A stretch of DNA of 64,000 bases from Clostridia bacterium. GTDB lineage: Bacteria > Bacillota > Clostridia > Oscillospirales > Acutalibacteraceae. The notes beneath the pieces are model-generated. The model was not told the origin of the DNA, made no database searches, and was given only the letters and a program-made list of their open reading frames with translations. Location: NCBI GenBank assembly GCA_017503135.1, contig JAFVTQ010000002.1:171502-235501 (forward strand). Direction: 5' to 3'. A program made the position numbers and the translations under genes. This document shows positions 1 to 27,120 of this stretch, one piece after another (the stretch's first letter is position 1; the number at the start of each line of letters is the position of its first letter).

Positions 1-1008
1 TATATATGTCGCACCGAGTGCTCTGTCGAAAAGACCGTAGCCTGGTTTTCCTGTTTCGCCCCAAATCATTCTACCGTGGTCGGGACGAACATATCCGTCA
101 AATCCAGTATCTACAAGTGCCTTAACTACCTCATACATATCAAGACTACCACAATCTGAAAGATGTCCGCTTTCTTCAAAACTTCCGTCTTCCATAATCA
201 AAATGTTTCTGATATGCATAAATGCAATTCGGTTCATTGCACTATATTTTCTAATCATTTTTACTACATCATTTGATTTTGCACAACCTAATGAGCCGGT
301 GCAAAGGCAAAGGCAGTTTGCCTCACTATCAACAAGTTTTAACATTCTGTCAATGTTTTCTTCGCAAGTGATAATTCTTGGAATACCAAAGATTGGGTAT
401 GGTGGGTCATCAGGGTGAATTGCCATTTTAACGCCACACTCTTCAGCCACAGGAATAACTTTTTTAAGGAATTTTTCAAGATTTTTCCAAAGTCCTTCTT
501 CGCCCAACTCACCATAAGCTGAAATTAATTCTCTTATTTCTTCTTGACTATAGCTTGAATCCCAACCGGGAAGATGAATGTCATCTTTGAGTGGGTCAAG
601 ACCTTTCATCTGCTCCCAATACATAACAAGACTTGTTGAGCCATCTTCTGCCTCTTTATCAAGCTGTGTACGAGTCCAGTCAAAAACAGGCATAAAGTTA
701 TATGTTACACATTTAACGCCATATTTTGCACAACGACGAATGTTTTCACAATAAACCTCTAAAAGCTCGTCCACATTATCTCTGCCGAGTTTAATGTTTT
801 CGTGCACAGGAATTGATTCAACAACATCAAAAACAAGACCGTTTTCTTCACATTGTTTTACCATTTTTTCAATTGACTCTTCCGGCCAAACCTCACCCGG
901 TTTTACATCATAAACAGCACTGACAATGCTTTTCATATTTGGAATTTGACGAATGTATTGCAACGAAATTGGGTCACTTTCGCCATACCAACGGAATGAC
1001 ATTTTCAT
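1..1008 (-). CDS. uxuA: Mannonate dehydratase, 3' end cut by the window edge
   Basis: Absent from the ORF track because it runs off the window. My minus-strand translation from ATG 1006-1008 gives MKMSFRWYGESDPISLQYIRQ...VVESIPVHENIKLG...YNFMPVFDWTRT...HPDDPP, colinear with UxuA. GGAGGG RBS at 1015-1020. Confidence 0.85.
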   Translation of the reverse strand, partial: MKMSFRWYGESDPISLQYIRQIPNMKSIVSAVYDVKPGEVWPEESIEKMVKQCEENGLVFDVVESIPVHENIKLGRDNVDELLEVYCENIRRCAKYGVKCVTYNFMPVFDWTRTQLDKEAEDGSTSLVMYWEQMKGLDPLKDDIHLPGWDSSYSQEEIRELISAYGELGEEGLWKNLEKFLKKVIPVAEECGVKMAIHPDDPPYPIFGIPRIITCEENIDRMLKLVDSEANCLCLCTGSLGCAKSNDVVKMIRKYSAMNRIAFMHIRNILIMEDGSFEESGHLSDCGSLDMYEVVKALVDTGFDGYVRPDHGRMIWGETGKPGYGLFDRALGATYI

Positions 1009-9026: not shown

Positions 9027-10697
9027 TTAGAAAAGACCGTCGATTTTGCCGTCACTATCTACATCTATTTTGTATGCTGCTGGAACTTTTGGAAGTCCTG
9101 GCATTGTCATAATGTCACCTGTAAGGCATACGATAAAGCCTGCACCTGCACTGAGTTTTACTTCACGAACTGTCATTGTGAAGTTTTCAGGTTTACCAAG
9201 CTTTGTTGGTTCATCTGAAAGTGAATACTGTGTTTTTGCAACGCAGATTGGAAGCTTGTCTTTGCCGAGCGCTTCAATATCTTTTATTGCTTTTTCAGCT
9301 GCAGCTGTGAAAATTACGCCATCTGCACGATAAATTTCTTTTGCGATTGTGTTAAGTTTTTCTTTGATTGGAAGTTTTTCGTCATAAAGTGGTGCGAAGT
9401 CTGCTTTGCCTTCGTCGATAACTGCGCAAACCTTTTCTGCAAGGTCCATACCACCTTCGCCACCTTTAGCGAACACTTCAGCAAGAGAAACAGGCACTTG
9501 CATTTCTTCACAGAATTCCTTGATATAAGCAATTTCTGCGTCAGTATCTGTATGGAATTTGTTGATTGCAACAACAACTGGCACATTGTATTTTCTCATA
9601 TTTTCAATATGAGTTTTAAGGTTTACGATACCCTTTTTGAGTGCTTCTACATTTTCTTCTTGTAAATCTGCACGAGCAACGCCACCGTTGTATTTAAGAG
9701 CACGGATTGTTGCAACAACAACGATACATTCAGGTTTAAGACCTGCATAACGACACTTGATGTCAAGGAATTTCTCTGCACCAAGGTCTGCACCGAAGCC
9801 TGCTTCTGTAATACAGTAGTCAGCAAGTTTGAGTGCGAGTTTTGTAGCAGTAACAGAGTTACAACCATGAGCAATATTTGCGAAAGGACCACCATGCATA
9901 ATTGCAGGTGTGTTTTCAAGTGTCTGCACAAGGTTTGGCTTGATAGCATCTTTTAAAAGTGCTGCCATTGAGCCAACTGCATTCAAATCCTTTGCATAAA
10001 CAGGCTCGTTATCAAGAGTGTATGCCACAAGAATATTGCCAAGTCTTGTTTTAAGGTCGTCGATATCTGTTGCAAGGCAAAGAATAGCCATAATTTCACT
10101 TGCAACTGTAATCATAAAGCCATCTTCTCTTGGCACACCGTTAACCTTACCACCAAGACCAACGATTACGTTACGAAGTGCACGGTCATTCATATCAAGA
10201 CAACGCTTAAAGAGAATTCTTCTCTGGTCAATTCTCAAATCGTTACCCTGTTGCATATGGTTATCAATAATTGCGCAAAGAAGGTTGTTTGCAGCAGTAA
10301 TTGCGTGCATATCGCCTGTAAAGTGCAAGTTGATGTCTTCCATAGGGATAACCTGTGAATATCCACCACCTGCTGCGCCACCTTTCACACCGAAAACTGG
10401 TCCCATTGATGGCTCACGAAGTGCGATACAAGCATTTTTGCCGATTTTGTTCATTGCCTGACCAAGACCAACTGTAATAGTTGTTTTACCCTCACCTGCA
10501 GGTGTTGGGTTGATAGCAGTAACAAGAATGAGTTTTCCGTTTTCTCTGTCTGCATATTTTTTGTTAAGAGAAAGTGGAAGCTTTGCCTTGTATTTGCCAT
10601 ACATTTCAAGGTCGTCAGCGTCAATATTGAGTTTTTTTGCGATTTCTACAATTGGTAAACAAGGTGTCTGTTGTGCGATTTGAATGTCTGAAAGCAT
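9027..10697 (-). CDS. fhs: Formate--tetrahydrofolate ligase
   Basis: Full-length match in pattern to Fhs ([15 protein letters not shown]...[13 protein letters not shown]...). Confidence 0.95.
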
Positions 10698-10714
10698 AGT
10701 TTAATCCCCCAAAT

Positions 10715-11422
10715 TTATTTTAATAATTCATTTAATTTATTCATCATTTCCTTTGTTGGAGTGGGAATGTGCTCAAAAGGAAACTCAATTTTCATATTGT
10801 CGTATTTAGTCTGACAAATTTTCTTGAATGGTAAAAGTTCAACCTTATCAACACAAGAATGATTTTCAACAATTTTGTTAAGTTTTTGAATGTTATTCTG
10901 GTTATCGTTGATAGTCGGAATAATCACTTGTCTTATTGTTGTTGGAATTTTCTGCTCATTTAAATAATACAAAAATTCCAACGGTTTTTCAAGTGAGCAA
11001 CCAACATTTTCTAAATACAAATCATTTTCTGTATATTTGATGTCGAGCAACACTCTGTCCGTTTCACCAAGCAACTTTTTAATGTTGTCATTAAGAATAT
11101 TACCCGAAGTATCAAGGCAGGTATTTATACCCTTTGCGTGACAGAGTTTGAATGTTTCATAACAGAATTGGGGTTGTAAAAGTGGTTCACCGCCCGAAAG
11201 GGTAACTCCACCTTTATCACCGAAATATTCTTTATAATGCAAAGCCTTTTCTACTATCTCTTGGGGTGTGAATTGCTTTTCGCTTTGCATATCCCAAGTG
11301 TCAGGGTTATGACAGCATTTGCAACGAAGATTACAACCTTGCAAGAAAACTACAAAGCGTAATCCCGGTCCATCAAGAGTGCCAAGACTTTGAATTGAAT
11401 GAACATGACCTGTCATAATCAC
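10715..11422 (-). CDS. pflA: Pyruvate formate-lyase activating enzyme (radical SAM)
   Basis: [26 protein letters not shown] is the CX3CX2C radical SAM motif of glycyl-radical activases. Overlaps the pflB stop. Confidence 0.9.
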
Positions 11423-13644
11423 ATTGCCTCGTGGAATGTTCTGCTTATAACTTCTCTCTGCTGTGCTTTTGAAAGTTTATTGAAGTTAACTGCATAACCT
11501 GATACGCGGATTGTAAGGTTAGGATATTTTTCAGGATTCTCATAAGCATCCATAAGTGTTTCACGGTTAAGCACATTGACATTGATGTGATGTGCTTTCT
11601 TTGCGAAATAGCCATCAAGGATTGCAACGAGATTGTTTACTCTTTCTTCGTCATCACGACCAAGTGCTTCAGGTGTGATTGAGAATGTATTTGAAATGCC
11701 GTCACGGCAGTCGTCATAACTGATTTTAGCAACAGAGTTAAGAGAAGCGAGTGCACCGTTTTCTTCACGGTTATGCATTGGGTTTGCACCCGGTGCAAAT
11801 GGCTCTGCATTCTTTCTGCCATCAGGTGTAGCACCTGTGTTTTTACCATACATAACATTTGATGTGATTGTGAGCACAGAGAGTGTATGAATTGCTTCTC
11901 TATAAGTTGGTGTCTGACGAAGTGCAGTAATCACACGGTGAGCCATATCCTTTGCCATAAGGTCAACTCTGTCATCATCGTTACCATATTTAGGAAATTC
12001 ACCGGTTGTGTTGAAATCTACTATAAATCCATCTTCATCCTTAATAGTTTCAACATTTGCAAATTTGATAGCGCTTAATGAGTCTGCCACAACTGAAAGA
12101 CCCGCGATACCGAATGCCATAAAGCGTTCAACATCTGTGTCGTGAAGTGCCATCTGAATTTTTTCATAGGCATATTTATCGTGCATATAGTGAATGACAT
12201 TCATTGTGTTTACATACAAGTGACTGAGCCATTCGATATAAATTTGGAATCTCTCCATAACCTTATCGAAATCAAGAGTATCCATAACAGGCATTTGTGG
12301 ACCAATATGCATTTTGCTTGTTGTATCATAACCACCGTTGATTGCAATAAGCAAAAGCTTTGCAAGGTTACAACGAGCACCAAAGAACTGCATCTGCTTG
12401 CCAACCTTCATTGCAGAAACGCAACAAGCAATAGCATAGTCATCACCATAAATTGGTCTCATTACATCGTCATTTTCATATTGAATTGAGTCTGTATCCT
12501 TTGAAACCTTTGCGCAGAATTTTTTGAAATTTTCCGGCAAAGCATTTGACCACAAAATTGTAAGGTTTGGTTCAGGTGATGAACCGAGAGTATAAAGTGT
12601 GTTGAGAACACGGAAACTGTTTTTAGTAACAAGTGTTCTGCCGTCTTGACCCATACCACCAACTGCTTCGGTAATCCACATTGGGTCACCACCGAAAAGT
12701 TCGTTATATTCAGGTGTGCGAAGGTGACGAGCCATTCGAAGTTTCATAACGAAATCATCCATAAGCTCTTGTGCTTCGACTTCTGTAAGCACACCATTCT
12801 CTATATCTCTTTCAATATAAATATCAAAGAATGTGCTGACACGACCTAATGACATTGCAGCACCATTCTGCTCTTTGATTGCGCCAAGATAAGCAAAATA
12901 TGTCCATTGAATTGCTTCACGAGCATTTTTTGCAGGTTGGCTAATATCAAAGCCATACATCTGAGCCATTTCTTTAAGATAGCCCAAGAAAGTAATCTGT
13001 TGGTAAAGTTCTTCAAATGTGCGAATATCTTCTGTTTTGAAATTGCCTGTTGCACGATTTGCTTTATCTTTTTTCTTCTCTTCAATGAGCTTATCAATAC
13101 CATAGAGAGCAACTCGACGATAGTCACCGATAATTCTGCCACGACCATAAGCATCGGGAAGCCCTGTAATTACGTGGCATTTACGAGCTGCACGCATTTC
13201 GTCAGTATAAGCACGGAAAACACCGTCGTTGTGAGTTGTTCTGAATTTGAATTCTTCTTCAACCTTTTCACTGAGTTTATAACCATAAGCCTCGCAAGCC
13301 TGACGCACCATTCTCATACCACCGAATGGGTTAACGCCACGCTTTAAAGGACGGTTTGTCTGAAGTCCCACGATAATTTCTTTTTCTTTGTCAAGATAAC
13401 CTGGTGAATAGCTTGTAAGTGATGATACAGTTGCTGTGTCAATATCAAGCACACCGCCATATTGTCTTTCGAGCTTGAAAAGTTCGTTGAGCTTATTCAT
13501 AAGGTCAGTTGTACGCTCAGTTGCACCTGCAAGGAATGAGTCATCACCTGTGTATTCTTTATAATTCTGTTGAATGAAATCACGGACATTGATTTCATCT
13601 TGCCATACGCCTTTTTTAAATCCGTTCCAATTAGTGTGTTCCAT
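11419..13644 (-). CDS. pflB: Formate C-acetyltransferase (pyruvate formate-lyase)
   Basis: Glycyl radical motif RVSGYAVNF near the C-terminus and the active-site CC in AIACCVSAM. The start was moved to ATG 13644 (MEHTNWNGF), which is preceded by an AGAGAGGA RBS. The track's 17 aa extension lies inside the leader. Confidence 0.95.
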
Positions 13645-13675
13645 TATAAAGTCCTCTCTTTCTGTTGAAAGTCCA

Positions 13676-13797
13676 TAAAAAACAAAACTGGACAATTCAA
13701 CTTTTTAAAAATTGAATTGCCCAGACGGTCGGCTATTATAAGATATTTTACATTCCCCCGTGGTAGCCCACGAAATCCGTCAGTCATGTAAAATTAC
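13676..13797 (-). promoter_or_regulatory. ZTP (pfl-motif) riboswitch with an intrinsic terminator expression platform
   Basis: Minus strand reads AUGACUGACGGAUUUCGUGGGCUACCACGGGGGAAUG...GCCGACCGUCUGGGCA. This matches the conserved GACUGRCG / CCACNGGGG / CCGNCUGGGC blocks of ZTP riboswitches. GGGCAAUUCAA...UUGAAUUGUCC followed by a U-tract (13722-13676) overlaps the 3' aptamer strand. Confidence 0.9.
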
Positions 13798-13832: not shown

Positions 13833-13929
13833 GTTTTGCACAAGACAGATTTTTACACTTTTCGTCACATATTTTTTGTGTATTTGCACAAAAAACAGTG
13901 TGTCAGCAACTGTAACACACTGCATAAAA

Positions 13930-14331
13930 TTATTTTTTCAAATGAGCACCCGTCATTGTTACGATTGCAACATTATTACCCAAATTATCACTGATTACAA
14001 TCTCATAAAAACAAGTTGTTCGACCATCTTTAATGAGTTTGCTTTCACCATAAAGAATATCGCCTTTTGCCATACCAAGATAGCAAATTTGACTAACTGT
14101 TGTAACTGTAATATCTTCTTGATTAAAATTTGTTGCAACTGCAAAGACAAAGTCTGCAAGTGTAAACATTACACCACCCATTACATTACCAACGGCATTA
14201 CGATGAGAAGCATTTAATTTAAGACTACATTTTGCATATTTTTCTTTTACTTCATCAATTACAATGCCCGTACTTTCAGTGGCATATTTATCCCCGCTGA
14301 AAAAATCTCTAGCTTTTTCAAGGTCTGTCAT
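13930..14331 (-). CDS. PaaI-family hotdog-fold acyl-CoA thioesterase
   Basis: HRNAVGNVMGGVMFTLADFVFAVA is typical of PaaI/4HBT thioesterases. The start was moved to ATG 14331 (MTDLEK) behind an AAAGGTGA RBS. The track start at 14349 lies in the upstream terminator U-tract. Confidence 0.75.
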   Translation of the reverse strand: MTDLEKARDFFSGDKYATESTGIVIDEVKEKYAKCSLKLNASHRNAVGNVMGGVMFTLADFVFAVATNFNQEDITVTTVSQICYLGMAKGDILYGESKLIKDGRTTCFYEIVISDNLGNNVAIVTMTGAHLKK

Positions 14332-14346
14332 AAAAATCACCTTTGT

Positions 14347-14381
14347 CAAAAAACAGCGTATTACAAAAGATAATACGCTGT
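14347..14381 (-). terminator. Rho-independent terminator (possibly leaky) between the ligase fusion and the thioesterase
   Basis: Minus strand reads ACAGCGTATTAtcttttgTAATACGCTGT followed by TTTTTG. Confidence 0.6.
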
Positions 14382-14389
14382 AATTTTTA

Positions 14390-16888
14390 TCATTTTTTAA
14401 GTCCCAATCTTTCGCTTGCTTCTTCTCTCATTTTATATTTGAGAATTTTGCCCGCCGCATTCATTGGGAATGCTTTTACAAAGTCAACATAGCGTGGAAC
14501 TTTGTGTCTTGCCATATTAGCGTTAATATATGCCTTCATCTCGTCTGCTGTCATTTCTTCGCCATCTTTTAAGATGATACAAGCCATAATCTCTTCGCCA
14601 TATTGCTCGTCAGGTACACCTATAACCTGAACATCACTAACCTTTGGATGAGTATAAATAAACTCTTCGATTTCTTTTGGATAGATATTTTCACCACCGC
14701 GAATAATCATATCTTTAAGACGACCTGTGATGTTATAGTTACCCTCAGGTGTTCTGCAAGCCAAGTCACCTGTGTGAAGCCAACCATCTTTGTCAATAGC
14801 CTCAGCAGTAGCCTTTGGCATTTTGTAATAGCCCTTCATAATGTTGTAGCCCCTTGCCACAAACTCACCATTGACTCCGTCAGGACAATCTTCACCTGTT
14901 TCAGGGTCGATAATCTTACATTCAACATTTGCGAATGCGCTACCAACAGTTTCTGTTCTGACTTCAAGAGAGTCATAATAACTACTCATTGTGCAACCAG
15001 GTGCTGCTTCTGTCTGACCATAAACTGAAACGATTTCTTTCATATTCATAACTTCAGTTGCTTTTTTCATAAGGTCTGCAGGACAATTAGCACCTGCCAT
15101 AATACCTGTTCTCATATATGAAAAATCAGTTTTCGCGAAGTCCTCGTGTTGCATCATTGCAATAAACATTGTTGGAACACCATTGAATGTTGTAATATGC
15201 TCATTGTGAACACAAGACAAAGCTGGTTTTGGTGAGAAATATGGTAACGGATACATTGTTGCTCCGTGAGTCATTGCCGCAGTCATTGAAAGTACCATAC
15301 CAAAGCAATGGAACATTGGCACCTGAATCATCATTCTGTCAGCAGTTGACAAATCCATATGGTCACCGATATATTTACCGTTATTTACAACGTTATAGTG
15401 TGTGAGCATAACACCTTTTGGGAAACCTGTTGTACCTGATGTATATTGCATATTGCAAACATCATCTTTATTAACGGCAGCAGCCATTCTGTAAACTGTT
15501 TCAACAGGCACTTGTGATGCACGAGCGATTGCGTCATCCCAAGTCATACATCCCTTTTGCTTGAAACCAACTGTGATAACATTTCTAAGGAATGGCAAAC
15601 GACGGGAATGCAAAGTATCCCCTGACTGCATTGAGTCAAGCTCAGGGCAAAGTTTTGCAATGATTTCACCATAATGTGTATCTTTTGCACCCTCAGTCAA
15701 AATCAATGTATGTGTATCTGACTGACGAAGCAAATATTCAATTTCTGCAATTTTATAAGCAGTATTAACTGTAACCAAAACTGCACCGATTTTTACTGTT
15801 GCCCAAAAAGCAATATACCATTGTGGCACATTTGAAGCCCAGACTGCAACGTGATGACCTGCTTTAACACCCATTGCCACAAGTGAACGGGCAAATGTGT
15901 CAACATCATCTCTGAACTCACTATATGTGCGAGTGTAGTCAAGTGTTGTGTATTTAAAGGCATATTGGTCAGGGAATTCTTCAACCATTCTGTCAAGCAC
16001 ATCTGAAAATGTGTTTTCAATCAAAAGGTCTTTTTTCCAGACGAATTTACCTGTATGAGCACGGTTATAATAAAGAGTTTTCTCATTTCTTGATGGGTCA
16101 TTGAACTGACGCATAAAGTTGATATATTGAGAGAAGATAATCTCCATATCGTCAAGCTCTTCGCACCAAGCCGGGTCCCAAACGAGAGAAATGAAACCAT
16201 CATAGTTAACTGAGCGAAGGCTGAGCATCATCTCGGCGATTGGCAATTCGCCCTCACCTGCAAGACAGTATTCAACGCCATTTTCAGTTTTGACTGCATC
16301 GTGAAAATGAACGTGACGGACATAAGCACCAAGATTTTTAATAACATCTTCTGCTGATTCACCACATTCAAAATATGCTGATGAAAGATTCCACAAAGCG
16401 CCTAAATTGTCACAAGCAAAGCCATCAAGCATATCACGAAGCACTGATGTGCTTGCAAAAAGTCCTGATGTTTCAAGCAAAAGTGTAACGCCCTTTTCTT
16501 CTGCTTGTGGAAGAACTTTACGAAGAAATTCTTCTGTCTGTTTTAAAGCACTTTCACTATCTTCAGAAGCCTTTGCGCGAAGACGGATATATGGAATATG
16601 CAAATTTTCTGCGATTTCTAAACATCTTATCAATTCTTCTTCGATATTGCTATCTTTATCTGCTAATTCGCTGATTGTGTCAAGACAAGAAATCTTCAAA
16701 TTTTTATTATATAAACGACGAAGTGTTGCCGCCGCTGTATAATCGTGAAAAGCACCGTCTTTTGCTGTGAAGAGACGATTATAAATATTGTGGAGTTCAA
16801 TACCCTCAAAATGAAGATATTCTGCTACTTCACAAAAATCTTCAAAGGTACTGTTATGCCACCCTTTTGTTGAAAAGGAGAGATTCAT
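14390..16888 (-). CDS. Fusion protein: xylose-isomerase-like TIM barrel (sugar phosphate isomerase/epimerase family) plus FadD-type AMP-forming acyl-CoA ligase
   Basis: The N-terminal ~270 aa (FEGIELHN...LLLET...HVHFHD...EGELP) fits the AP-endonuclease-2/xylose-isomerase-like fold. The C-terminal ~550 aa carries YTSGTTGFPKGVMLTH, GYYK, TGD and RGGENIYPKEIE motifs of adenylate-forming ligases. Confidence 0.8.
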   Translation of the reverse strand: MNLSFSTKGWHNSTFEDFCEVAEYLHFEGIELHNIYNRLFTAKDGAFHDYTAAATLRRLYNKNLKISCLDTISELADKDSNIEEELIRCLEIAENLHIPYIRLRAKASEDSESALKQTEEFLRKVLPQAEEKGVTLLLETSGLFASTSVLRDMLDGFACDNLGALWNLSSAYFECGESAEDVIKNLGAYVRHVHFHDAVKTENGVEYCLAGEGELPIAEMMLSLRSVNYDGFISLVWDPAWCEELDDMEIIFSQYINFMRQFNDPSRNEKTLYYNRAHTGKFVWKKDLLIENTFSDVLDRMVEEFPDQYAFKYTTLDYTRTYSEFRDDVDTFARSLVAMGVKAGHHVAVWASNVPQWYIAFWATVKIGAVLVTVNTAYKIAEIEYLLRQSDTHTLILTEGAKDTHYGEIIAKLCPELDSMQSGDTLHSRRLPFLRNVITVGFKQKGCMTWDDAIARASQVPVETVYRMAAAVNKDDVCNMQYTSGTTGFPKGVMLTHYNVVNNGKYIGDHMDLSTADRMMIQVPMFHCFGMVLSMTAAMTHGATMYPLPYFSPKPALSCVHNEHITTFNGVPTMFIAMMQHEDFAKTDFSYMRTGIMAGANCPADLMKKATEVMNMKEIVSVYGQTEAAPGCTMSSYYDSLEVRTETVGSAFANVECKIIDPETGEDCPDGVNGEFVARGYNIMKGYYKMPKATAEAIDKDGWLHTGDLACRTPEGNYNITGRLKDMIIRGGENIYPKEIEEFIYTHPKVSDVQVIGVPDEQYGEEIMACIILKDGEEMTADEMKAYINANMARHKVPRYVDFVKAFPMNAAGKILKYKMREEASERLGLKK

Positions 16889-16891
16889 TTT

Positions 16892-18271
16892 TTATGCCTC
16901 CTCATAGACGATTTTGTTAACTGCGTTAAGATATGCACGGATACTTGCGCCCATAATATCGGTTGAAATACCGTTACCTGAATAAAGCTTGCCACCTGAA
17001 CGAAGTTTAACAAGCGCCGAACCCATTGCTTCTTTACCCTCTGTAACTGATTGAATCTGGAAATCATCAAGCTCATAGTGATGACCGATAATTCTGTCGA
17101 TTGCAAGGAATGCGGCATCAATAGGACCTGCACCAATGCAGACATCCTGAATTTTTTTGCCGTCTTTTTCAAGTGTAATCTGTGCACTTGCAGAGATAAT
17201 GTTACCATTATTGATAACATAACTAATTAATTTATATGTTGATGGAACTTGCAATGCAGCACTCGCCACGATTGCTTCAAGTTCTTTAAGACCAACCTTT
17301 TTCTTTGCTGCAACACGCAAAAATTCTTCATAAACTTTATTCTGGTCGTCATCTGACAAATCATAGCCAAGATTTGATGCTGCTGCAATAACATCTGCCT
17401 GACTGTCTTTTTCGTCAAGACAAATTGTTTCAGTTACGGCACTTGTAACTGTAACCGCTGCACGCTCTGTGTCTGCTGTGTCGCTAATCCAACGGATTTG
17501 CTTTGCAATTCTCAAAAGTTCTGTTGTTTTGAGATTTGTTTTAACCCCATATTTTTCACCACAGTTTTTAACCATTGTTGCGAAAGTATCCAATGAAACG
17601 TGGCTACCGTCAACTGCAGTTTTAACAAGAGTTGCACCCTTTCGTACAGAAAGAATTGCCTGAGCAGTTGCAAGGCCATTTTTATTGTCACAACCAACAC
17701 CAACAGGCACATTCACCCAAGAGCCAACTTCTGCGATAAAATCTGCAAAGTCGTCAGGCATTGTTTCTGCTGCGCTGTCGCAAACTGAAACTGATGTTGC
17801 ACCGTTCTGAACTGCGATTTCAACAAGCTTTTTAAGGAATTCAGGCTCTGTTCTTGTTGCATCAAGAGCACAGAATTCAACACAATCACATTTTTCTTTT
17901 GCCATTTTCACTGTTTCGCCAACCCAAATAAGCATTTTATCAGGCTTTTTGTGGCAAGTATATTCCATTCCAACAGGTGAAACTGGCAATTCGATACGAA
18001 TGCAAGGATGAGCCGCATTTGTTAGTGCTGTTGCTGCCTGTTCAATGCTTTCTTTTGTAAGTCCTGCTGCAACTGACAATACACCTTTTTTAACAAATGA
18101 TGAAACAGTTTTAACAAATAGAATATCTGTTCTCGCATCGCTAATTGCAGGAATTTCGATTACATCAACACATAGTTTCTCTAACTGACGAGCAATTTCA
18201 ATTTTTTCTTTGAATGAAAATGAGTTTTGCTCTCTGCAGAGAGTAGCATCAGCAATTCTGATTGTTTTCAT
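16892..18271 (-). CDS. 2-isopropylmalate synthase-like protein (HMGL-like barrel plus LeuA_dimer regulatory domain), predicted catalytically inactive
   Basis: Colinear with LeuA. DTTLRDGEQ is replaced by DATLCREQ, and the HxH metal motif (VHTHDDLGLA) is replaced by VGCDNKNGLA. The C-terminal GAGPIDAAF...VTEGKEAMG..ISTDIMGASIRAYLNAVNK regulatory domain is retained. Confidence 0.75.
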   Translation of the reverse strand: MKTIRIADATLCREQNSFSFKEKIEIARQLEKLCVDVIEIPAISDARTDILFVKTVSSFVKKGVLSVAAGLTKESIEQAATALTNAAHPCIRIELPVSPVGMEYTCHKKPDKMLIWVGETVKMAKEKCDCVEFCALDATRTEPEFLKKLVEIAVQNGATSVSVCDSAAETMPDDFADFIAEVGSWVNVPVGVGCDNKNGLATAQAILSVRKGATLVKTAVDGSHVSLDTFATMVKNCGEKYGVKTNLKTTELLRIAKQIRWISDTADTERAAVTVTSAVTETICLDEKDSQADVIAAASNLGYDLSDDDQNKVYEEFLRVAAKKKVGLKELEAIVASAALQVPSTYKLISYVINNGNIISASAQITLEKDGKKIQDVCIGAGPIDAAFLAIDRIIGHHYELDDFQIQSVTEGKEAMGSALVKLRSGGKLYSGNGISTDIMGASIRAYLNAVNKIVYEEA

Positions 18272-18312: not shown

Positions 18313-18590
18313 AAAAAATCCCTGAAACAGTTAGTTTCTGTTTCAGGGACGAAATTTCTTCGCGGTACCACCCTGTTTACCGTTTATTTGCATAAATCGG
18401 TCAACTCTGTAAGGCTCTGACAAGCCTTTTGCCGTGGTAACGGGGCACGCCGTAACTACCTACACAGTTAACACCTTCAGCAGTTATGCTACGGAATGAG
18501 ACTTCTTTTTCTTTTCATACTGTCTTGCACCGAACGACAGCTCTCTGAAATGAATATGGGAAAAAGAATAGTTCCCTCAACGCATTTAAA
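18313..18590 (-). promoter_or_regulatory. T-box leader, predicted Leu specifier (CUC)
   Basis: The minus strand carries UGAGGGAA (K-turn and helix), CAGAGAG and GGUGCAAG distal motifs, and GU-CUC-A-UUCC in the specifier loop (codon at 18500-18498). It also has the T-box sequence AACAGGGUGGUACCGCGAAG (18378-18358) and the terminator UCCCUGAAACAG...CUGUUUCAGGGA plus U6 (18349-18313). Confidence 0.85.
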
Positions 18591-18609: not shown

Positions 18610-18638
18610 AGTTTAGCACAGGTTTTCTTGTTTGTCAA
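18610..18638 (-). promoter_or_regulatory. Promoter of the Leu T-box unit
   Basis: Minus strand reads TTGACA (18638-18633), a 17 nt spacer, then TAAACT (18615-18610). It begins right after the stop of the oxidoreductase gamma subunit. Confidence 0.55.
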
Positions 18639-18648
18639 GAAAAACTCA

Positions 18649-19182
18649 TTAAAAATCTGCGCCGAGCTTCAAAGCTTTAAGGTTTGTTTCAAGCATATCT
18701 GCACGTTTTGCAGAAATAACCTTTGAAAGTGTTGCTTTAACATCTTCTGCGTTAAAACCACCTAAAACTTCAAGAAGTTTGCCCATCAAAATCATATTTG
18801 CAAGTGTTGGGAAACCATTTTCACTTGCAAGACGAGTTGCAGGTATATAATAAACAGTAACATCATCGCGCTCAACTTTTCTTTCGATAAGTGTTGAGTC
18901 TGCTAAAATAATACCACCTGAAACTACACTCTTTTCAAACTTATCAAGAGATGGCAAGTTCATTGCAACTAAAATATCAGGATTTGAAATGATTGGTGAG
19001 CCAACTGCTTCGTCACTGATGATAACGCTACAGCTTGCTGTACCACCACGCATTTCAGGGCCGTATGATGGCAACCAGCTAACCTGTTTTCCGTCTGTAA
19101 GACCTTTATATGCAAGGAATTTACCTGCGAAGAGGATACCCTGACCACCAAAACCTGAAAGTAACATCTGTTTTGTACTCAT
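18649..19182 (-). CDS. 2-oxoacid:ferredoxin oxidoreductase, gamma subunit
   Basis: LLSGFGGQGILFAGKFLA...PSYGPEMRGG is the gamma/POR domain signature. Confidence 0.85.
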   Translation of the reverse strand: MSTKQMLLSGFGGQGILFAGKFLAYKGLTDGKQVSWLPSYGPEMRGGTASCSVIISDEAVGSPIISNPDILVAMNLPSLDKFEKSVVSGGIILADSTLIERKVERDDVTVYYIPATRLASENGFPTLANMILMGKLLEVLGGFNAEDVKATLSKVISAKRADMLETNLKALKLGADF

Positions 19183-19934
19183 TATTTATCCTCCCCTGCA
19201 CTTCTGTCTTTATAAACACCCAATGGATAATATGGAATCATTTTTTCGTCAATCCATTTAAGTGCCTGTTGTGGTGTAAGACCCCAGTTTGTTGGACAAG
19301 ATGAAACAACTTCAACCAATGAGAAGCCTTTTCCGTCTAACTGATTCTGGAATGCCTTTTTGATTGCCTTTTTAGCATTACGAACTGCTTTAACGCTGTT
19401 TACTGTAACGCGTTCAAGGTATTCAGGACCATCAAGCTGTGAAAGCATTTCACAAACCTTAATTGGATAACCACAATGGTTAACATCACGACCATAAGGT
19501 GAAGTCTGTGTAACCTGACCTGGCAATGATGTTGGAGCCATCTGACCACCTGTCATACCATAAATTGCGTTGTTAACGAAAATAACTGTGATGTTTTCGT
19601 TTCTTGCTGCTGCGTGAACAGTTTCTGCCATACCGATTGATGCCAAGTCACCGTCACCTTGGTATGTGAAAACAACGTGATTTTCAGGGTCTGCACGCTT
19701 AACACCAGTTGCAACTGCAGGTGCACGACCGTGTGCTGCTTCAATCATATCGCAGTTAAAATAGTTATAAGCCATAACAGAGCAACCAACAGGTGCAACA
19801 CCGATTGTTCTGCCTTCAATGCCTAATTCGTCCATAACTTCTGCAACAAGACGGTGAATAATACCATGTGTGCAACCAGGACAATAGTGCATTGACATTT
19901 CATTTAATGAATGTGGTTTATCAAATACAACCAT
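19182..19934 (-). CDS. 2-oxoacid:ferredoxin oxidoreductase, beta (TPP-binding) subunit
   Basis: [13 protein letters not shown]...GDGDLASIG...[11 protein letters not shown] is the TPP-binding beta subunit pattern. Start overlaps the alpha stop. Confidence 0.9.
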
Positions 19935-21001
19935 TATTTTGCACCTCCGTTTTCTGCTACTTCTTTAATTGCTTCTAACACCTGTTCAGGTGAAACAATC
20001 ATACCACCAACACGATTGCAAAGAGTAACTGGTACTTTGCATTCTGTTGCCAATCTAACATCTTCAATCATCTGACCCATTGAAAGTTCAACTGAGATGA
20101 TTGCCTTAACTTTATCTGCTGCTTTCTTGAATGGAGCAACAGGGAATGGCCATAATGTGATTGGTCTAATCATACCAACCTTGATGCCCTGTTTTCTTGC
20201 TTCGTTAACAGCATTTTTTGCAACACGAGAAGCGATACCGAATGCTGCGATTGCATATTCTGCATCATCCATAAGGTATTCTTCATACATTGCTTCGTTT
20301 TCTTTGATATAGTTATATTTTTCATAACGCTCAAAGTTAAGCTGTTCGAGTTCTTCTGGAACAAGAGACAATGAGTTAACAATATTGTGCTTTCTTTGGA
20401 GTTTTGTACCTACTGTTGCCCAAGGCTTTTCTGGAGCAGGCTTAACATCAAATTCAAGAGAAACAGGCTCCATCATCTGACCCATTGTACCATCAGCCAA
20501 AATCATTGATGTCATTCTGTATGTATCAGCAAGTTCAAAGCCCTTGACTGTAAGCTCTGCCATTTCTTGAACTGAAGCAGGAGCAAGAACTATCATATGA
20601 TAGTCACCGTGACCGCTGCCACGAGTTGCTTGGAAATAATCTGACTGGCTTGGCTGAATACCGCCAAGACCTGGGCCACCACGCTGAACATTTACAACGA
20701 GTGCTGGCAAGTCCGAACCAGCCATATATGAAAGACCTTCACTCTTAAGTGAAATTCCTGGGCTTGATGATGATGTCATAACACGACGGCCTGCCGCTGC
20801 AACACCATATACCATATTAATTGCTGCGATTTCACTTTCTGCTTGAAGGAATGCGCCACCGATTTTTGGCATTTTCTTTGCCATATAAGCAGCGATTTCT
20901 GTTTGTGGTGTAATTGGGTAACCGAAGTAATGACGACAACCTGCAATAATTGCTGCTTCGGCAATCGCTTCGTTACCTTTCATTAAAACTTTATCTGCCA
21001 T
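19934..21001 (-). CDS. 2-oxoacid:ferredoxin oxidoreductase, alpha subunit
   Basis: [30 protein letters not shown] is the pyruvate-flavodoxin/ferredoxin oxidoreductase N-terminal domain. Confidence 0.9.
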
Positions 21002-21006
21002 TTAAC

Positions 21007-21213
21007 TCACCTCTCCACCTTAATTACACAGTCAGGACACATAATTGCACAAGATGCGCAACCGATACAAGCAGCTTCGTCTGTAAGCTCTGCAGGGTGA
21101 TGTCCCTTTTTGTTAATCTTGTCTGGTGACAACTGCAAAATGTTTTTTGGACAAGCATCAACACAAAGTCCGCAACCTTTACAGTTATCTGTTTTAAAGG
21201 TTAATTTAGCCAT
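21007..21213 (-). CDS. 2-oxoacid:ferredoxin oxidoreductase, delta subunit (2x[4Fe-4S] ferredoxin)
   Basis: Two CxxCxxCxxxCP motifs (CKGCGLCVDACP and CIGCASCAIMCP) in 68 aa. Confidence 0.9.
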   Translation of the reverse strand: MAKLTFKTDNCKGCGLCVDACPKNILQLSPDKINKKGHHPAELTDEAACIGCASCAIMCPDCVIKVER

Positions 21214-21231: not shown

Positions 21232-21906
21232 TTAGAGAATTTTATCTTGTAATGTCAACGCCAAAGGCATTGGCACTTTATCTGACAATTCATTATGAAG
21301 TTCTGCTTTATATGCCGTTGCAACTAGTGGTAACCCCGTCGCCTTGGACACGGCATTAGCATATGGGAGTGACCCTAACACATCTTCTGCTGTTGTTTCT
21401 TCACCCAAGTTTGAGTTGTTGACAAGCCCTGTAAATTTAATTCCACAGGCAAACTCGATTTCACCCATAACCTCAAGTGTATCTTCAACAGTTCGTGTTA
21501 AAGGTCTGCATTTATTTATTACCATGAGCATCTCATAGTCATTTTCTTCTTTGATTTTAGGGGCTAATCTGCCAAGTGCCAGAGCACCACGGTCATCTCC
21601 ACCCACATCAATGAGCACTCTATGAGATGTATCATCGGTAATCGAATACATTTCTTGTGGCAATGCAGGAATATCAACATTACTATTCGCAAATTCTGAA
21701 CAGATTAGTTTTATACCTGCACGAGCCAATTCTTCACTGCTGTCTTTTGTTCGGAAATATGGATTAACTATATCCAAATCGGCAATAGTGACTTTGTCAT
21801 ATTGCTTTTTCATCATCATTGCTAAATTCACGGCAACATTTGTTTTGCCACTGCCATAATGACCACACAAAAGAGTTATTCTTTTATCAATTTTCATATT
21901 TTTCAT
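21232..21906 (-). CDS. P-loop NTPase of the MinD/ParA/CooC-like type
   Basis: Deviant Walker A CGHYGSGKTNVAVNLA and DLDIVNPYF. The start overlaps the stop of the upstream ligase (TAATG). Confidence 0.65.
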   Translation of the reverse strand: MKNMKIDKRITLLCGHYGSGKTNVAVNLAMMMKKQYDKVTIADLDIVNPYFRTKDSSEELARAGIKLICSEFANSNVDIPALPQEMYSITDDTSHRVLIDVGGDDRGALALGRLAPKIKEENDYEMLMVINKCRPLTRTVEDTLEVMGEIEFACGIKFTGLVNNSNLGEETTAEDVLGSLPYANAVSKATGLPLVATAYKAELHNELSDKVPMPLALTLQDKIL

Positions 21907-24191
21907 TATAATTTATTACGCTGAATTTTACCACTTACAGTTTTTGGAAGTTCTGTTCTGAACTCAACAATTCTTGGATATTTATAAGGAGCAGTTCTGT
22001 CCTTAACATACTTCTGAATTTCTTTTTTGAGTTCTTCTGTTGGCTCTGTGCCATTTGTAAGCACGATAACTGCTTTAACTACCTGACCACGAACTTCGTC
22101 AGGAACTGCACAAACACCACATTCAAGAACATAAGGGAGTTCCATAATAACGCTTTCAATTTCAAATGGTCCGATTCTGTAACCTGATGATTTGATAACA
22201 TCATCAACACGACCAACATACCAATAGAATCCGTCTTCATCGCACCAAGCAGTATCACCTGTGTGGTAATATCCGTCGTGGATAACTTCGTCTGTCTTTT
22301 CTTGGTCTCTGTAATATTCTGTGAACAAGCCACAAGGTGAACCATTCTGAAGATTAACAACGATTTCACCAACCTGACCAACTGGTACTTTGTTTCCGTC
22401 GGCATCCATAAGTGAAACATCATAAATCGGAGCAGGTTTACCCATTGAGCCGATTTTATGTGGTGCGCCTGTAAGGTTACCGATAATCATTGTGCTTTCA
22501 GACTGACCAAAACCTTCAAGGATTTGAAGTCCTGTTGCCTTTTCAAATTGACGATAAACCTCAGGGTTGAGCGCCTCACCTGCTGTTGTCATATGCTGAA
22601 CTGATGACAAATCGTATTTTGAAATGTCTTGTTTAATCATCATACGAAGCATTGTTGGTGGTGCACAGAATGTTGTGATTTTATATTTTGCAAACATAGG
22701 AAGGATGTCTGCTGCATCAAAACGGTCAAAGTCATAAACAAATGTTGCTGCTTCTGCAAACCATTGTCCATAGAATTTACCCCACATTGATTTAGCCCAA
22801 CCTGTGTCTGAAATAGTGAAGTGTAATCCATCAGGGTTAACGTTGTGCCAATATTTTGCAGTATGGAAATGTCCCAAAGGATATAAATGATTATGTACTG
22901 CGATTTTAGGATATCCTGTTGTACCTGATGTGAAGAACATAAGTAATGGGTCTTTGCCTGATGGTGCGTCTTCTGTACGGTTATAATGTGTACTGTAAAG
23001 TGTGTACTCATCGTCAAAACTGCGCCAACCGTCACGAGAGCCATTAACGATTAATTTATTTTTAAGTTCAGGGCATTTTTCTGCTGCCAATTCAACCTGA
23101 TGAGCAGTATCACCGTCGGCAGTACAGATAATAGTGTTAACCCCTGCTGATTGGAAACGATATTCAAAATCGTGCTCTTGCAACTGATTTGTTGCAGGAA
23201 TTGCGATTGCACCAAGTTTGTTAAGACCTAACACAGCAAACCAGAATTGATAGTGACGTTTAAGCACCAACATAACTCTGTCGCCTTTTTGAATACCCAA
23301 AGATTTAAAATAGTTTGCACATTGGTTAGATGCTTTTTTCAAATCTTTGAATGTAAATCTGTTTTCAGTTTTATCGTTACTGATATGTAACATTGCAAGT
23401 TTATTTGGTTTGTCTTCTGCTAACTTATCAATAACATCAAAAGCAAAATTGAATTTTTCAATATTCTTAAACTCAATCTTTGTTGGTGTGCCGTTTTCAT
23501 CTTTTGTAACATTAACATATTTACGATAAACACGGTCTTTTGTGTCTGGAGTTGCTTTCTTTACCGCAACTGCACGGCTTGGTGTAAGTTCCGGAATTGG
23601 CTCACCTGTTGGATTAAGAACGATTGCGTAGAAAACGCAGTCTTTACCGTTAACAGCAATCATACCATGAGGAGTGTCACTATCATAATAAATGCTGTCA
23701 CCAGGTCCTAAAACTTCTTGGTGTTCACCAATCTGAATAAGCAAGTTACCCTCAACAACAACGTCACATTCCTGACCTGCGTGAGTTGTAAGTTCAATTT
23801 CACGTTGCTCTGCACTTGGGTCATATTTACACCTAACATATAGAGGTTCTGCAATACGATTTTGAAAAGCATAAGCCATATTGTAATATGTCATACCGTG
23901 TGCTTCTGCAACTTCCTGACCTGCTTCTTTACGTGTAACTATAAATGATTTAAGATTTGGGCTATAACCCTCAACGATTTCTGTGACATTGACACCAAAA
24001 ATCATTGCGCAACGATAAATGAAAGCGAAGTTCAAATCTCCGTTACCACTTTCGCAGTTACGGTATTCTTCTGCGCTGACACCGACCTTTGCAGCCATTT
24101 CTTCGATAGTGTAGTTCTCAATTTCACGAAGCTCGCGAATACGACGCGCCATCTCTTGAATTTTGTAGTCCAAACCAGTTATGCGTTCCAT
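21906..24191 (-). CDS. XRE-HTH + cupin + AMP-forming acyl-CoA synthetase fusion (paralogue A, behind the Val T-box)
   Basis: The N-terminus has YTIEEMAAKVGVSAEEYRNCESG (HTH_3). A cupin follows (GPGDSIYYDSDTPHGM), then an ACS-like core (FFTSGTTGYPK, YHTGD, SSGYRIGPFEIES, PKTVSGKIQR). The start was moved to ATG 24191 (MERITGL) behind a GGAGAA RBS. The track's extension reads through the T-box terminator. Confidence 0.85.
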   Translation of the reverse strand: MERITGLDYKIQEMARRIRELREIENYTIEEMAAKVGVSAEEYRNCESGNGDLNFAFIYRCAMIFGVNVTEIVEGYSPNLKSFIVTRKEAGQEVAEAHGMTYYNMAYAFQNRIAEPLYVRCKYDPSAEQREIELTTHAGQECDVVVEGNLLIQIGEHQEVLGPGDSIYYDSDTPHGMIAVNGKDCVFYAIVLNPTGEPIPELTPSRAVAVKKATPDTKDRVYRKYVNVTKDENGTPTKIEFKNIEKFNFAFDVIDKLAEDKPNKLAMLHISNDKTENRFTFKDLKKASNQCANYFKSLGIQKGDRVMLVLKRHYQFWFAVLGLNKLGAIAIPATNQLQEHDFEYRFQSAGVNTIICTADGDTAHQVELAAEKCPELKNKLIVNGSRDGWRSFDDEYTLYSTHYNRTEDAPSGKDPLLMFFTSGTTGYPKIAVHNHLYPLGHFHTAKYWHNVNPDGLHFTISDTGWAKSMWGKFYGQWFAEAATFVYDFDRFDAADILPMFAKYKITTFCAPPTMLRMMIKQDISKYDLSSVQHMTTAGEALNPEVYRQFEKATGLQILEGFGQSESTMIIGNLTGAPHKIGSMGKPAPIYDVSLMDADGNKVPVGQVGEIVVNLQNGSPCGLFTEYYRDQEKTDEVIHDGYYHTGDTAWCDEDGFYWYVGRVDDVIKSSGYRIGPFEIESVIMELPYVLECGVCAVPDEVRGQVVKAVIVLTNGTEPTEELKKEIQKYVKDRTAPYKYPRIVEFRTELPKTVSGKIQRNKL

Positions 24192-24214
24192 AGTTTTTCT
24201 CCATTCTCGGGACG

Positions 24215-24485
24215 AAAAAGCACCCGTCCCAAAGTTTATGACTTTGAGACGAGCGCCGAATATCTTTCGTTGCACCCGCGGTACCACTCAAATTGCAGTT
24301 TATAACTGCCACTCAGGGTCTGACAACCCTTATGCATTCACGCAGCAATCACGGAGAGATTCTACTAACCCCACAGGGCTTTCTTTCTCTCGGCTCGGAA
24401 GCTACAAACACAAAATCGAACCCGAATGACTTGCACCAACCGTCATTTCTCTGAAACCGTCTTTTTTGTGCACTCTTCGTCAGTG
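24215..24485 (-). promoter_or_regulatory. T-box leader, predicted Val specifier (GUA)
   Basis: The minus strand carries UGACGAAG, CAGAGAA, GGUUGGUGCAAG, and UUU-GUA-G-CUUC-CGAGC (codon at 24405-24403). It also has the T-box UUUGAGUGGUACCGCGG (about 24293-24277) and the terminator CGUCUCAAAGU..ACUUUGGGACG followed by GGUGCUUUUU. Confidence 0.8.
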
Positions 24486-26815: not shown

Positions 26816-26845
26816 AAGCAATTCCTCCTATACAGAAATTGAAAT

Positions 26846-27100
26846 AAAAAAATTCGCCTCAAAACTAATGCTTTGAGACGAATGTAAAATCATCCGCGGT
26901 ACCACTCAAATTGTAGCTTTCACTACCCCTCAAGGTCCAACAACCTTTATGCCTTTACGCAGCAATCACGAGAAACGTCTACTCCCAACAGGTTTCGGGT
27001 TTCCAGCTCAGAAGTGATAGGTTTCTGGATTTTTGTTATTGACTTGCACCAACCGTCAACTCTCTGAAAACAAGACATCCAAACCGTCTTCGTCATAGCT
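26846..27100 (-). promoter_or_regulatory. T-box leader, predicted Ile specifier (AUC)
   Basis: The minus strand carries UGACGAAG, CAGAGAG, GGUUGGUGCAAG, and U-AUC-A-CUUC-UGAGC (codon at 27018-27016). It also has the T-box UUUGAGUGGUACCGCGG (about 26912-26896) and the terminator UCGUCUCAAAG..UUUUGAGGCGA plus U7 (26882-26846). Confidence 0.85.
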
Positions 27101-27120
27101 TTTGCTATTAAATTACGGCT

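Follow-up and report, generated by a model that had tools for sequence, protein, structure and literature searches.

A LeuA-like gene behind a leucine T-box

We analysed a stretch of 64,000 nucleotides from the assembly GCA_017503135.1 of Clostridia bacterium (contig JAFVTQ010000002.1, positions 171,502 to 235,501 of the forward strand), hereafter the window. The gene studied here occupies positions 16892..18271 of the window and encodes a protein of 459 amino acids related to LeuA, 2-isopropylmalate synthase. All coordinates are those of the window unless another locus is named, and every window feature given below lies on the minus strand. The open reading frame (ORF) is preceded by a plausible ribosome-binding site (AAAGGA) upstream of its ATG. 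Residues 14-258 form a degenerate HMGL-like (DRE-TIM) barrel (17498..18232; Pfam PF00682, 114 bits, E 1e-32), and behind it come subdomain II, which is conserved and spans roughly residues 291-338, and a LeuA_dimer allosteric and dimerisation domain at residues 329-454 (16910..17287; Pfam PF08502, 108.7 bits, E 2.5e-31) that covers positions 5-130 of the 131 positions of the Pfam model. All of the LeuA equivalog models of NCBIfam matched the protein, and all of them did so far under their cut-offs; the best, NF002086, reached 275 bits where 532 were required, and TIGR00973 reached 248 bits where 599 were required. The CimA models gave 26-70 bits, leaving LeuA models as the nearest. An AlphaFold2 model built from a 59-sequence alignment had a mean predicted local distance difference test (pLDDT) score of 90.5. 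In Foldseek comparisons, its barrel superposed on the LeuA catalytic domains 3ewb and 3rmj with a root-mean-square deviation of 1.7-1.9 Å at a sequence identity of 26-29%, and the whole predicted chain also matched full-length Mycobacterium tuberculosis LeuA and plant MAM synthase.

The gene is the first one behind a T-box leader (18342..18589), which scored 125.2 bits with Rfam RF00230 (gathering score 93). A sigma-70-like promoter of the form TTGACA-17-TGnTAAACT lies upstream of the leader at 18610..18638 (10/12 in a consensus scan, with an extended -10 TG; a pattern match only), and an intrinsic terminator with a 13-bp stem and a T-run (18318..18350), found by a terminator scan upstream of the ORF, overlaps the 3' side of the T-box antiterminator. 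In the cmscan alignment, we ourselves read the specifier loop as GAAGU-CUC-A, a leucine codon followed by the conserved purine. To place this reading in a wider sample, we used 80 species-representative loci of 20 kb, in which 43 leaders could be parsed. The specifier was a leucine codon in all 43 leaders, CUC in 35 and CUG in 8, and this synonymous switch across taxa supports the assignment. An Rfam T-box was found at the expected place in eight of ten sampled loci.

The next gene, which encodes a fusion of a triosephosphate isomerase (TIM) barrel and an acyl-CoA ligase, starts 3 nt past the stop codon of the LeuA-like gene, and its ribosome-binding site (GAGGAGG) lies inside the last LeuA-like codons (Y-E-E-A; 16889-16903). 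The conservation of the two C-terminal glutamates in the LeuA-like protein may partly stem from this overlapping site. A terminator-like hairpin found by the terminator scan at 14353..14381 follows the ligase gene, so that the operon behind the T-box consists of two genes. In addition, assembled metatranscriptome contigs from rumen and gut, which may contain DNA, span both the boundary between leader and ORF and the junction between the LeuA-like gene and the ligase gene, as fits co-transcription. The two genes are probably translationally coupled. The position directly behind a leucine T-box and the co-transcription with an acyl-CoA ligase fusion had both been put forward in a preliminary description of this DNA, made from the sequence alone, and our results agree with it on both.

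In some species, divergent T-boxes stand back to back, as at 9330-9562 (minus strand) and 9716-9958 (plus strand) in L048 and at 236-468 (minus strand) and 634-873 (plus strand) in L058. In each pair, one T-box drives the LeuA-like and ligase genes, and the other drives an operon of MbcS-like ligase and Vor oxidoreductase genes on the opposite strand.

Loss of the catalytic elements of LeuA

To compare the catalytic motifs, we used HMMER alignments to the Listeria and Neisseria LeuA structures (3ewb and 3rmj). In strand 1 of LeuA, the arginine of the LRDGxQ motif binds the 2-oxoacid and its aspartate ligates the divalent metal; the metal ligands (this aspartate and the HxH pair) were assigned here from the canonical motifs visible in the alignments. 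The strand-1 segment DTTLRDGEQ is replaced by DATLCR-EQ, in which the arginine has become Cys12, the aspartate Arg13 and the glycine is deleted. The segment HCHNDLGLA, with the HxH motif after strand 7, reads GCDNKNGLA, with Gly193 in place of the first histidine and Asp195 in place of the second one. The NGLGERAGN loop after strand 8 is reduced to DG-----SH by a deletion of five residues, and the motif was found in no family member. Furthermore, alignment with canonical LeuA representatives revealed the deletion of a subdomain-I stretch of about 35 residues that contains AFxHESGIH and with it the catalytic histidine of HESGIH; the Pfam HCS_D2 model matched none of the six family members tested and all of the five canonical LeuA proteins tested. 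The activity of M. tuberculosis isopropylmalate synthase is abolished by both R80A and R80K (PMC10464499). The subdomain-I residues His379 and Tyr410 matter for function (PMC9860122).

The window gene thus encodes a LeuA-derived protein that lacks the catalytic and metal-binding residues and retains an intact LeuA_dimer domain. Most of this had been anticipated in the preliminary description. The loss of the arginine-aspartate pair together with a one-residue deletion, the replacement of the HxH motif and the loss of the GERAGN loop were all recovered in the alignments, and the hidden Markov model (HMM) alignment and structural superposition that it had suggested as checks show the ligands replaced in a barrel that still lies on 3ewb and 3rmj. 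The well-preserved LeuA_dimer domain that it had noted is borne out by a Pfam score within the range of canonical LeuA. Two of its statements need adjustment. Its list of three replaced catalytic elements was correct but too short, the loss of subdomain I making four, and the alignment with 2-isopropylmalate synthase over the whole length is slightly overstated because the subdomain-I/HESGIH segment is missing. Because the protein lacks every catalytic feature of LeuA that was tested, it ought not to be classified as 2-isopropylmalate synthase.

Family distribution and selective constraint

A word-indexed search for close relatives returned more than 120 clusters at an identity of at least 66%. 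Nearly all of their members are 456-461 amino acids long, with one exception of 415 amino acids at 89% coverage; they come from metagenome-assembled genomes of Clostridia, Ruminococcaceae and Oscillospiraceae and carry the NCBI label 'hypothetical protein'. When cluster representatives at 50% identity were searched exhaustively with HMMER, the family grew to about 105 full-length clusters of 453-497 amino acids with identities down to 32-37%, and canonical LeuA proteins of about 500-516 amino acids ranked only after these. The family thus occurs in Clostridia of the gut and the rumen.

Across 106 diverse sequences of the family, residues 12-13, 193-195 and 221-226 of the former active site are unconserved, and the HxH positions are occupied by K/G/R-x-D/N/S or by other residues. 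The column entropy of residues 300-459, which comprise subdomain II and the regulatory domain, is about half that of the barrel. The most conserved part of the protein consists of the regulatory-domain motifs GxGPIDA, TxG..A.G, GxGxSTD and AY..A.N, which are identical to those of canonical LeuA; the invariant residues are G380, G382, P383, D385, T410, G412, G417, G434, S436, D438, A446, Y447, A450 and N452, and nearly every one of them is the canonical LeuA residue. The Pfam scores point the same way: the HMGL-like domain scored 114 bits in the window protein and 61-100 bits in other family members versus 231-280 bits in canonical LeuA, while LeuA_dimer scored 101-111 bits in the family versus 106-135 bits in canonical LeuA.

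Selective constraint was estimated as the ratio of nonsynonymous to synonymous substitution rates (dN/dS) by the Nei-Gojobori method, comparing the window gene with two relatives at 91-94% identity. The barrel gave dN/dS values of 0.08-0.16 and the C-terminal part values of 0.02-0.04, illustrating that the LeuA-like protein is under strong purifying selection, which is strongest on the sensor half. Values this low indicate that the protein is functional and that the gene is not in decay. The loss of the catalytic motifs, and the label 'hypothetical protein' that the relatives carry, would also fit a decaying or mis-assembled leuA pseudogene without function. However, the ORF is intact and of similar length in hundreds of clusters, dN/dS is far below 1, the predicted fold is confident, the synteny is conserved and the gene is transcribed, so that we consider the chance of a dead gene negligible; the intact ORFs of the family, the dN/dS values and the conserved synteny effectively refute it.

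The preliminary description had also left room for a different chemistry in the barrel. In such a scenario, the protein would be an enzyme with a new metal-independent activity, for example acyl transfer through Cys12 and Cys194 on the product of the neighbouring ligase. These two cysteines are kept in 117-118 of the 121 sequences of the close clade (at least 66% identity), and the barrel dN/dS of 0.08-0.16 would also agree with a retained activity. Nevertheless, the same positions hold Q, R, S, K, V, L or A in the wider family, no alternative invariant polar constellation is present at the former active site, and subdomain I, which closes the active site of LeuA, is deleted. A new chemistry is thus disfavoured by the lack of conservation at positions 12, 13, 193-195 and 221-226 in the wider family, and we regard it as improbable. 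Cysteine-based chemistry was dropped as the main interpretation on the same ground, the cysteines being unconserved beyond the close clade.

These results define a real and widespread family of LeuA-derived pseudoenzymes. In the literature searched, we found no description of either the family or its operon, and it is apparently undescribed. Other LeuA homologues were seen in some of the loci. In L088, the protein P0251 (8001-9536) is a separate, full-length LeuA homologue of 511 amino acids that is itself partly degenerate, with the motifs DTTLCDGEQ and GIGKRAGC and with RAY where HxH would stand, and its gene lies directly upstream of, and adjoins, an aconitase-family (LeuC-like) gene; P0265 of L089 is similar. 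P0251 may be an independent or an intermediate case of LeuA degeneration. In L068, a canonical-length LeuA homologue lies 4.5 kb from the LeuA-like locus.

The downstream fusion of a TIM barrel and an acyl-CoA ligase

The partner gene encodes 832 amino acids. Residues 1-285 (16034..16888) form a xylose-isomerase-like TIM barrel (Pfam AP_endonuc_2), and residues 286-832 (14390..16033) form an AMP-forming acyl-CoA ligase domain (AMP-binding, 307 bits, and AMP-binding_C), which gave a PRK12583-like NCBIfam match of 664 bits. The AlphaFold2 model of its barrel had a pLDDT of 87.9, and Foldseek matched it to sugar epimerases, IolI and AsbF at a template modelling (TM) score of about 0.7. Its presumed E-D-H-E metal tetrad, whose positions we assigned from the motif and from predicted strand ends and not by structural superposition, reads E-N-H-V in the window and is intact in 21 of 66 homologues. 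Across species, the ligase part shows an identity of 70-89% and the fused barrel one of 30-67%, and the dN/dS value of the ligase is 0.025. The fused barrel looks like a second pseudoenzyme-like domain of the operon. The operon thus encodes two TIM barrels under relaxed constraint together with two modules under strong constraint, namely the ligase and the regulatory domain of the LeuA-like protein. We propose that the ligase domain is an isovalerate-CoA ligase, a putative substrate assignment that draws on its genomic context.

The fusion is the next gene in all of the 77 species loci with enough downstream DNA, and the full ligase is present in 62 of 62. The gaps between the two genes are mostly 3-12 nt, with a median below 10 nt, and the pairing is kept even in the most divergent family member examined (31% identity).

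Strict pairing of the genes and a geometry suited to translational coupling would also be expected if the LeuA-like protein were a structural subunit that senses nothing, a dead LeuA dimer whose role is limited to assembling the ligase, stabilising it or anchoring it to the Vor oxidoreductase complex encoded nearby. That both barrels are degenerate fits such scaffold roles as well. What speaks against this explanation is the pattern of conservation in the regulatory domain: its ligand-binding motifs are conserved more strongly than any other part of the protein, and pure dimerisation would not need them. We therefore consider a purely structural role rather unlikely.

Neighbourhood and pathway context

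Upstream of the leucine T-box operon lie the genes of a four-subunit 2-oxoacid:ferredoxin oxidoreductase of the VorB type (18649..21213; Pfam POR), with Vor gamma at 18649-19182, beta at 19182-19934, alpha at 19934-21001 and delta at 21007-21213. The alpha subunit passes the NCBIfam model NF005507 for VorB with 539 bits against a cut-off of 399, and the delta ORF is ferredoxin-like with two 4Fe-4S motifs. These genes are preceded by one for a CbiA/Mrp-like P-loop protein (21232-21906) and by two genes for MbcS-like short branched-chain acyl-CoA synthetases fused to helix-turn-helix (HTH) and cupin domains (21906-24287 and 24548-26821). MbcS was the best NCBIfam match of both ligases, at 451-453 bits and thus under the equivalog cut-off. 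An N-terminal XRE-type HTH and a cupin on a CoA ligase are unusual, and they may be another built-in sensor. A second T-box (26871..27105; Rfam, 99 bits), whose specifier was read from the alignment as AUC (isoleucine), heads the operon of the two MbcS-like ligases, the CbiA/Mrp-like P-loop protein and VorDABC. In the loci of relatives, a class-IV aminotransferase gene (IlvE) and often an Amidohydro_2 gene are added. Among the 38 loci of at least 15 kb, Vor genes were found within 10 kb in 23 and MbcS-like ligases in 24.

Branched short-chain fatty acids have been known since the 1960s to be needed by, or to benefit, rumen and gut Firmicutes, which convert them to branched-chain amino acids. 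In rumen microbes, leucine is reported to arise from isovalerate, which is first carboxylated and then aminated (PMC7356843). Read most economically, the neighbourhood would encode a salvage route that starts from branched short-chain acids: a ligase would convert an acid to its acyl-CoA, Vor would carboxylate the acyl-CoA reductively to a 2-oxoacid, and IlvE would transaminate the 2-oxoacid to the amino acid. Judging from gene content and T-box specifiers, the isoleucine-controlled MbcS-like ligases would serve isoleucine and valine and the leucine-controlled TIM-ligase fusion would serve leucine, their substrates being putative. Staphylococcus aureus MbcS uses 2-methylbutyrate and isobutyrate and barely uses isovalerate, with a Michaelis constant (KM) above 500 uM (PMC10026030), and this poor use of isovalerate would explain the need for a separate leucine ligase.

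Downstream of the two-gene operon, a PaaI-type hotdog thioesterase (13930..14349; Pfam 4HBT and an NCBIfam hotdog thioesterase model) is a variable accessory gene. It varies between strains, a metatranscriptome contig joining position 13929 to 14392 without a thioesterase gene; it is missing in L085, and in other species an Amidohydro_2 gene stands in its place. Beyond it, a cluster at 9027-13797 comprises a ZMP/ZTP riboswitch (13712-13797) upstream of a pyruvate formate-lyase gene (11419-13695), together with genes for its activating enzyme (10715-11422) and for formate-tetrahydrofolate ligase (9027-10697), a typical one-carbon regulon. Further along, an ORF of 910 amino acids (4852-7584) had no Pfam match at E <= 1e-5.

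A proposed leucine-sensing regulatory subunit

We propose that the pseudoenzyme is a leucine-sensing regulatory subunit of an isovalerate-CoA ligase that would feed reductive carboxylation to leucine, and we give this proposal, which is built on sequence comparison and gene context, about an even chance. A regulatory and scaffolding role is suggested because catalysis is gone, because the sensor and subdomain II are the most constrained parts of the protein, and because the gene is paired with the ligase. The LeuA-like protein would no longer condense acetyl-CoA with 2-oxoisovalerate and would instead be the regulatory (and scaffolding) subunit of the ligase fusion encoded immediately downstream. 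First, the ligase would turn isovalerate into isovaleryl-CoA. Second, the Vor-type oxidoreductase would reductively carboxylate isovaleryl-CoA to 2-oxoisocaproate. Third, IlvE would transaminate 2-oxoisocaproate to leucine. Two layers of control would act on this route. Uncharged tRNA-Leu at the T-box would open transcription, and once leucine is restored, it would bind the dimer of the retained LeuA regulatory domain; the signal would then pass through subdomain II and the dead barrel and throttle the ligase, which consumes ATP and CoA. Such protein-level feedback on the entry step would complement the slower control by the T-box. The PF08502 domain can act as a stand-alone, autonomous amino-acid sensor (PMC13381585). 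In LeuA, leucine binds the dimer of C-terminal domains, from where the signal reaches the barrel of the partner chain by way of the accessory subdomains (PMC9860122).

The ligand could also be another one. In this case, the regulatory domain or a residual barrel pocket would bind 2-oxoisocaproate, isovaleryl-CoA or CoA, or another branched-chain amino acid, and the protein would tune the ligase or pass its product to Vor. The PF08502 domain binds isoleucine in CimA and leucine in LeuA (PMC13381585), a crystal structure of M. tuberculosis LeuA contains ketoisocaproate in the barrel (PDB 3hps), and the barrel-face residues E132, D137, R140 and D165 are conserved in the family. On the other hand, the closest models are those of LeuA and not of CimA, all 43 parsable leaders are leucine-specific, and the arginine that holds the oxoacid in LeuA is gone together with the metal, their positions being variable in the family. 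A sensor of a different ligand is thus unlikely in our estimation.

Several observations weigh against the proposal of a leucine-sensing subunit. The barrel, which would be a passive scaffold, is under clear purifying selection and still conserves the residues S98, E132, D137, R140 and D165 of the LeuA active-site face, so that it may still bind a ligand. Locus L091 holds the only family member seen without the fusion downstream (P0244, 1287-2693). A search with the TIM barrel as the query returned no Rosetta-stone fusion of a LeuA-like protein with the ligase, the proteins listed being shorter than 500 amino acids and many of them partial. A second leucine sensor is not logically required, because the T-box already provides control by leucine. 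Finally, leucine binding, the complex with the ligase, the isovalerate substrate and the direction of regulation are points that we infer, leucine sensing in particular from domain conservation, strict synteny and the leucine-specific T-box. As a separate observation on L091, the genes on either side of P0244 are of RhuM and HTH type, which may be a mobile-element context.

Comparison with known systems

The short form of LeuA (EC 2.3.3.13), a DRE-TIM metallolyase represented by the structures 3ewb, 3rmj and 1sr9/3fig, has the same order of barrel, subdomain II and LeuA_dimer domain as the LeuA-like protein; the motifs of the regulatory domain are common to both, and both belong to a leucine regulon. 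However, LeuA has the arginine-aspartate pair, HxH, the GERAGN loop and a subdomain I with HESGIH, all of which the LeuA-like protein is without, and the latter is about 50 amino acids shorter. Unlike leuA, its gene lies outside a leuABCD operon and is paired with the TIM-ligase fusion. CimA has a regulatory domain of the same PF08502 family, but it is catalytically active and regulated by isoleucine, and the LeuA-like protein matches LeuA models far better than CimA models (275 versus 26-70 bits). Plant MAM synthase (PDB 6e1j), the top Foldseek match over the barrel and subdomains, is an isopropylmalate synthase paralogue that was recruited elsewhere and can be viewed as a mirror image: MAM synthase is still catalytic but no longer has the regulatory domain, and the reverse has happened in the LeuA-like protein. 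S. aureus MbcS is unrelated to the LeuA-like protein but offers a functional precedent for the salvage of branched short-chain acids, and the two upstream ligases of the window resemble it; it feeds fatty-acid synthesis and not amino-acid synthesis.

HisZ is a catalytically dead paralogue of histidyl-tRNA synthetase that serves as the histidine-responsive regulatory subunit of the short-form ATP phosphoribosyltransferase HisG. It is conceptually the closest system, namely a paralogue from the system of the same amino acid that lost catalysis and became an allosteric subunit of the enzyme of the committed step. The LeuA-like family resembles HisZ in having lost its catalytic residues under purifying selection and in co-occurring with a catalytic partner (77/77 and 62/62 loci, with the exception of L091). 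The folds and the ancestry are unrelated, and the HisZ-HisG complex and its feedback are experimentally established, whereas their counterparts here are putative.

By analogy, we tentatively suggest a more specific arrangement, which we rate somewhat below an even chance. In Clostridia of gut and rumen, the leucine-sensing module of LeuA would have been moved onto the committed enzyme of an alternative leucine route, such that a dead LeuA dimer docks on the TIM barrel, likewise dead, of the isovalerate-CoA ligase fusion. This leucine-gated entry complex would feed the route from isovalerate to leucine by reductive carboxylation; it would be of the HisZ type and would have evolved independently for branched-chain amino acids.

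Biological significance

The isovalerate-to-leucine reductive-carboxylation pathway has long been inferred and is genetically undefined, and the genes and the control of the route from branched short-chain acids to amino acids are in general poorly defined. The locus described here offers a complete and testable gene set for it: an isoleucine T-box, two MbcS-like ligases, VorDABC (with IlvE in relatives), a leucine T-box, the pseudo-LeuA and the TIM-ligase fusion. The family also matters for annotation. One LeuA-like fragment was annotated by the Joint Genome Institute (JGI) as '2-isopropylmalate synthase', and automated pathway reconstruction could through such a label wrongly credit organisms with LeuA activity.

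The anatomy of the LeuA-like protein and its operon is solid, and the proposed mechanism is plausible. The contextual link of the family to the supply of leucine from isovalerate is strong, and the LeuA-like protein is a candidate feedback sensor for the isovalerate route. Its regulatory domain, a conserved module that stands alone, might be built into a leucine biosensor as the scaffold. If the proposed function is true, this family would be a clear bacterial case of a metabolic enzyme that has been recycled as a regulatory pseudoenzyme.

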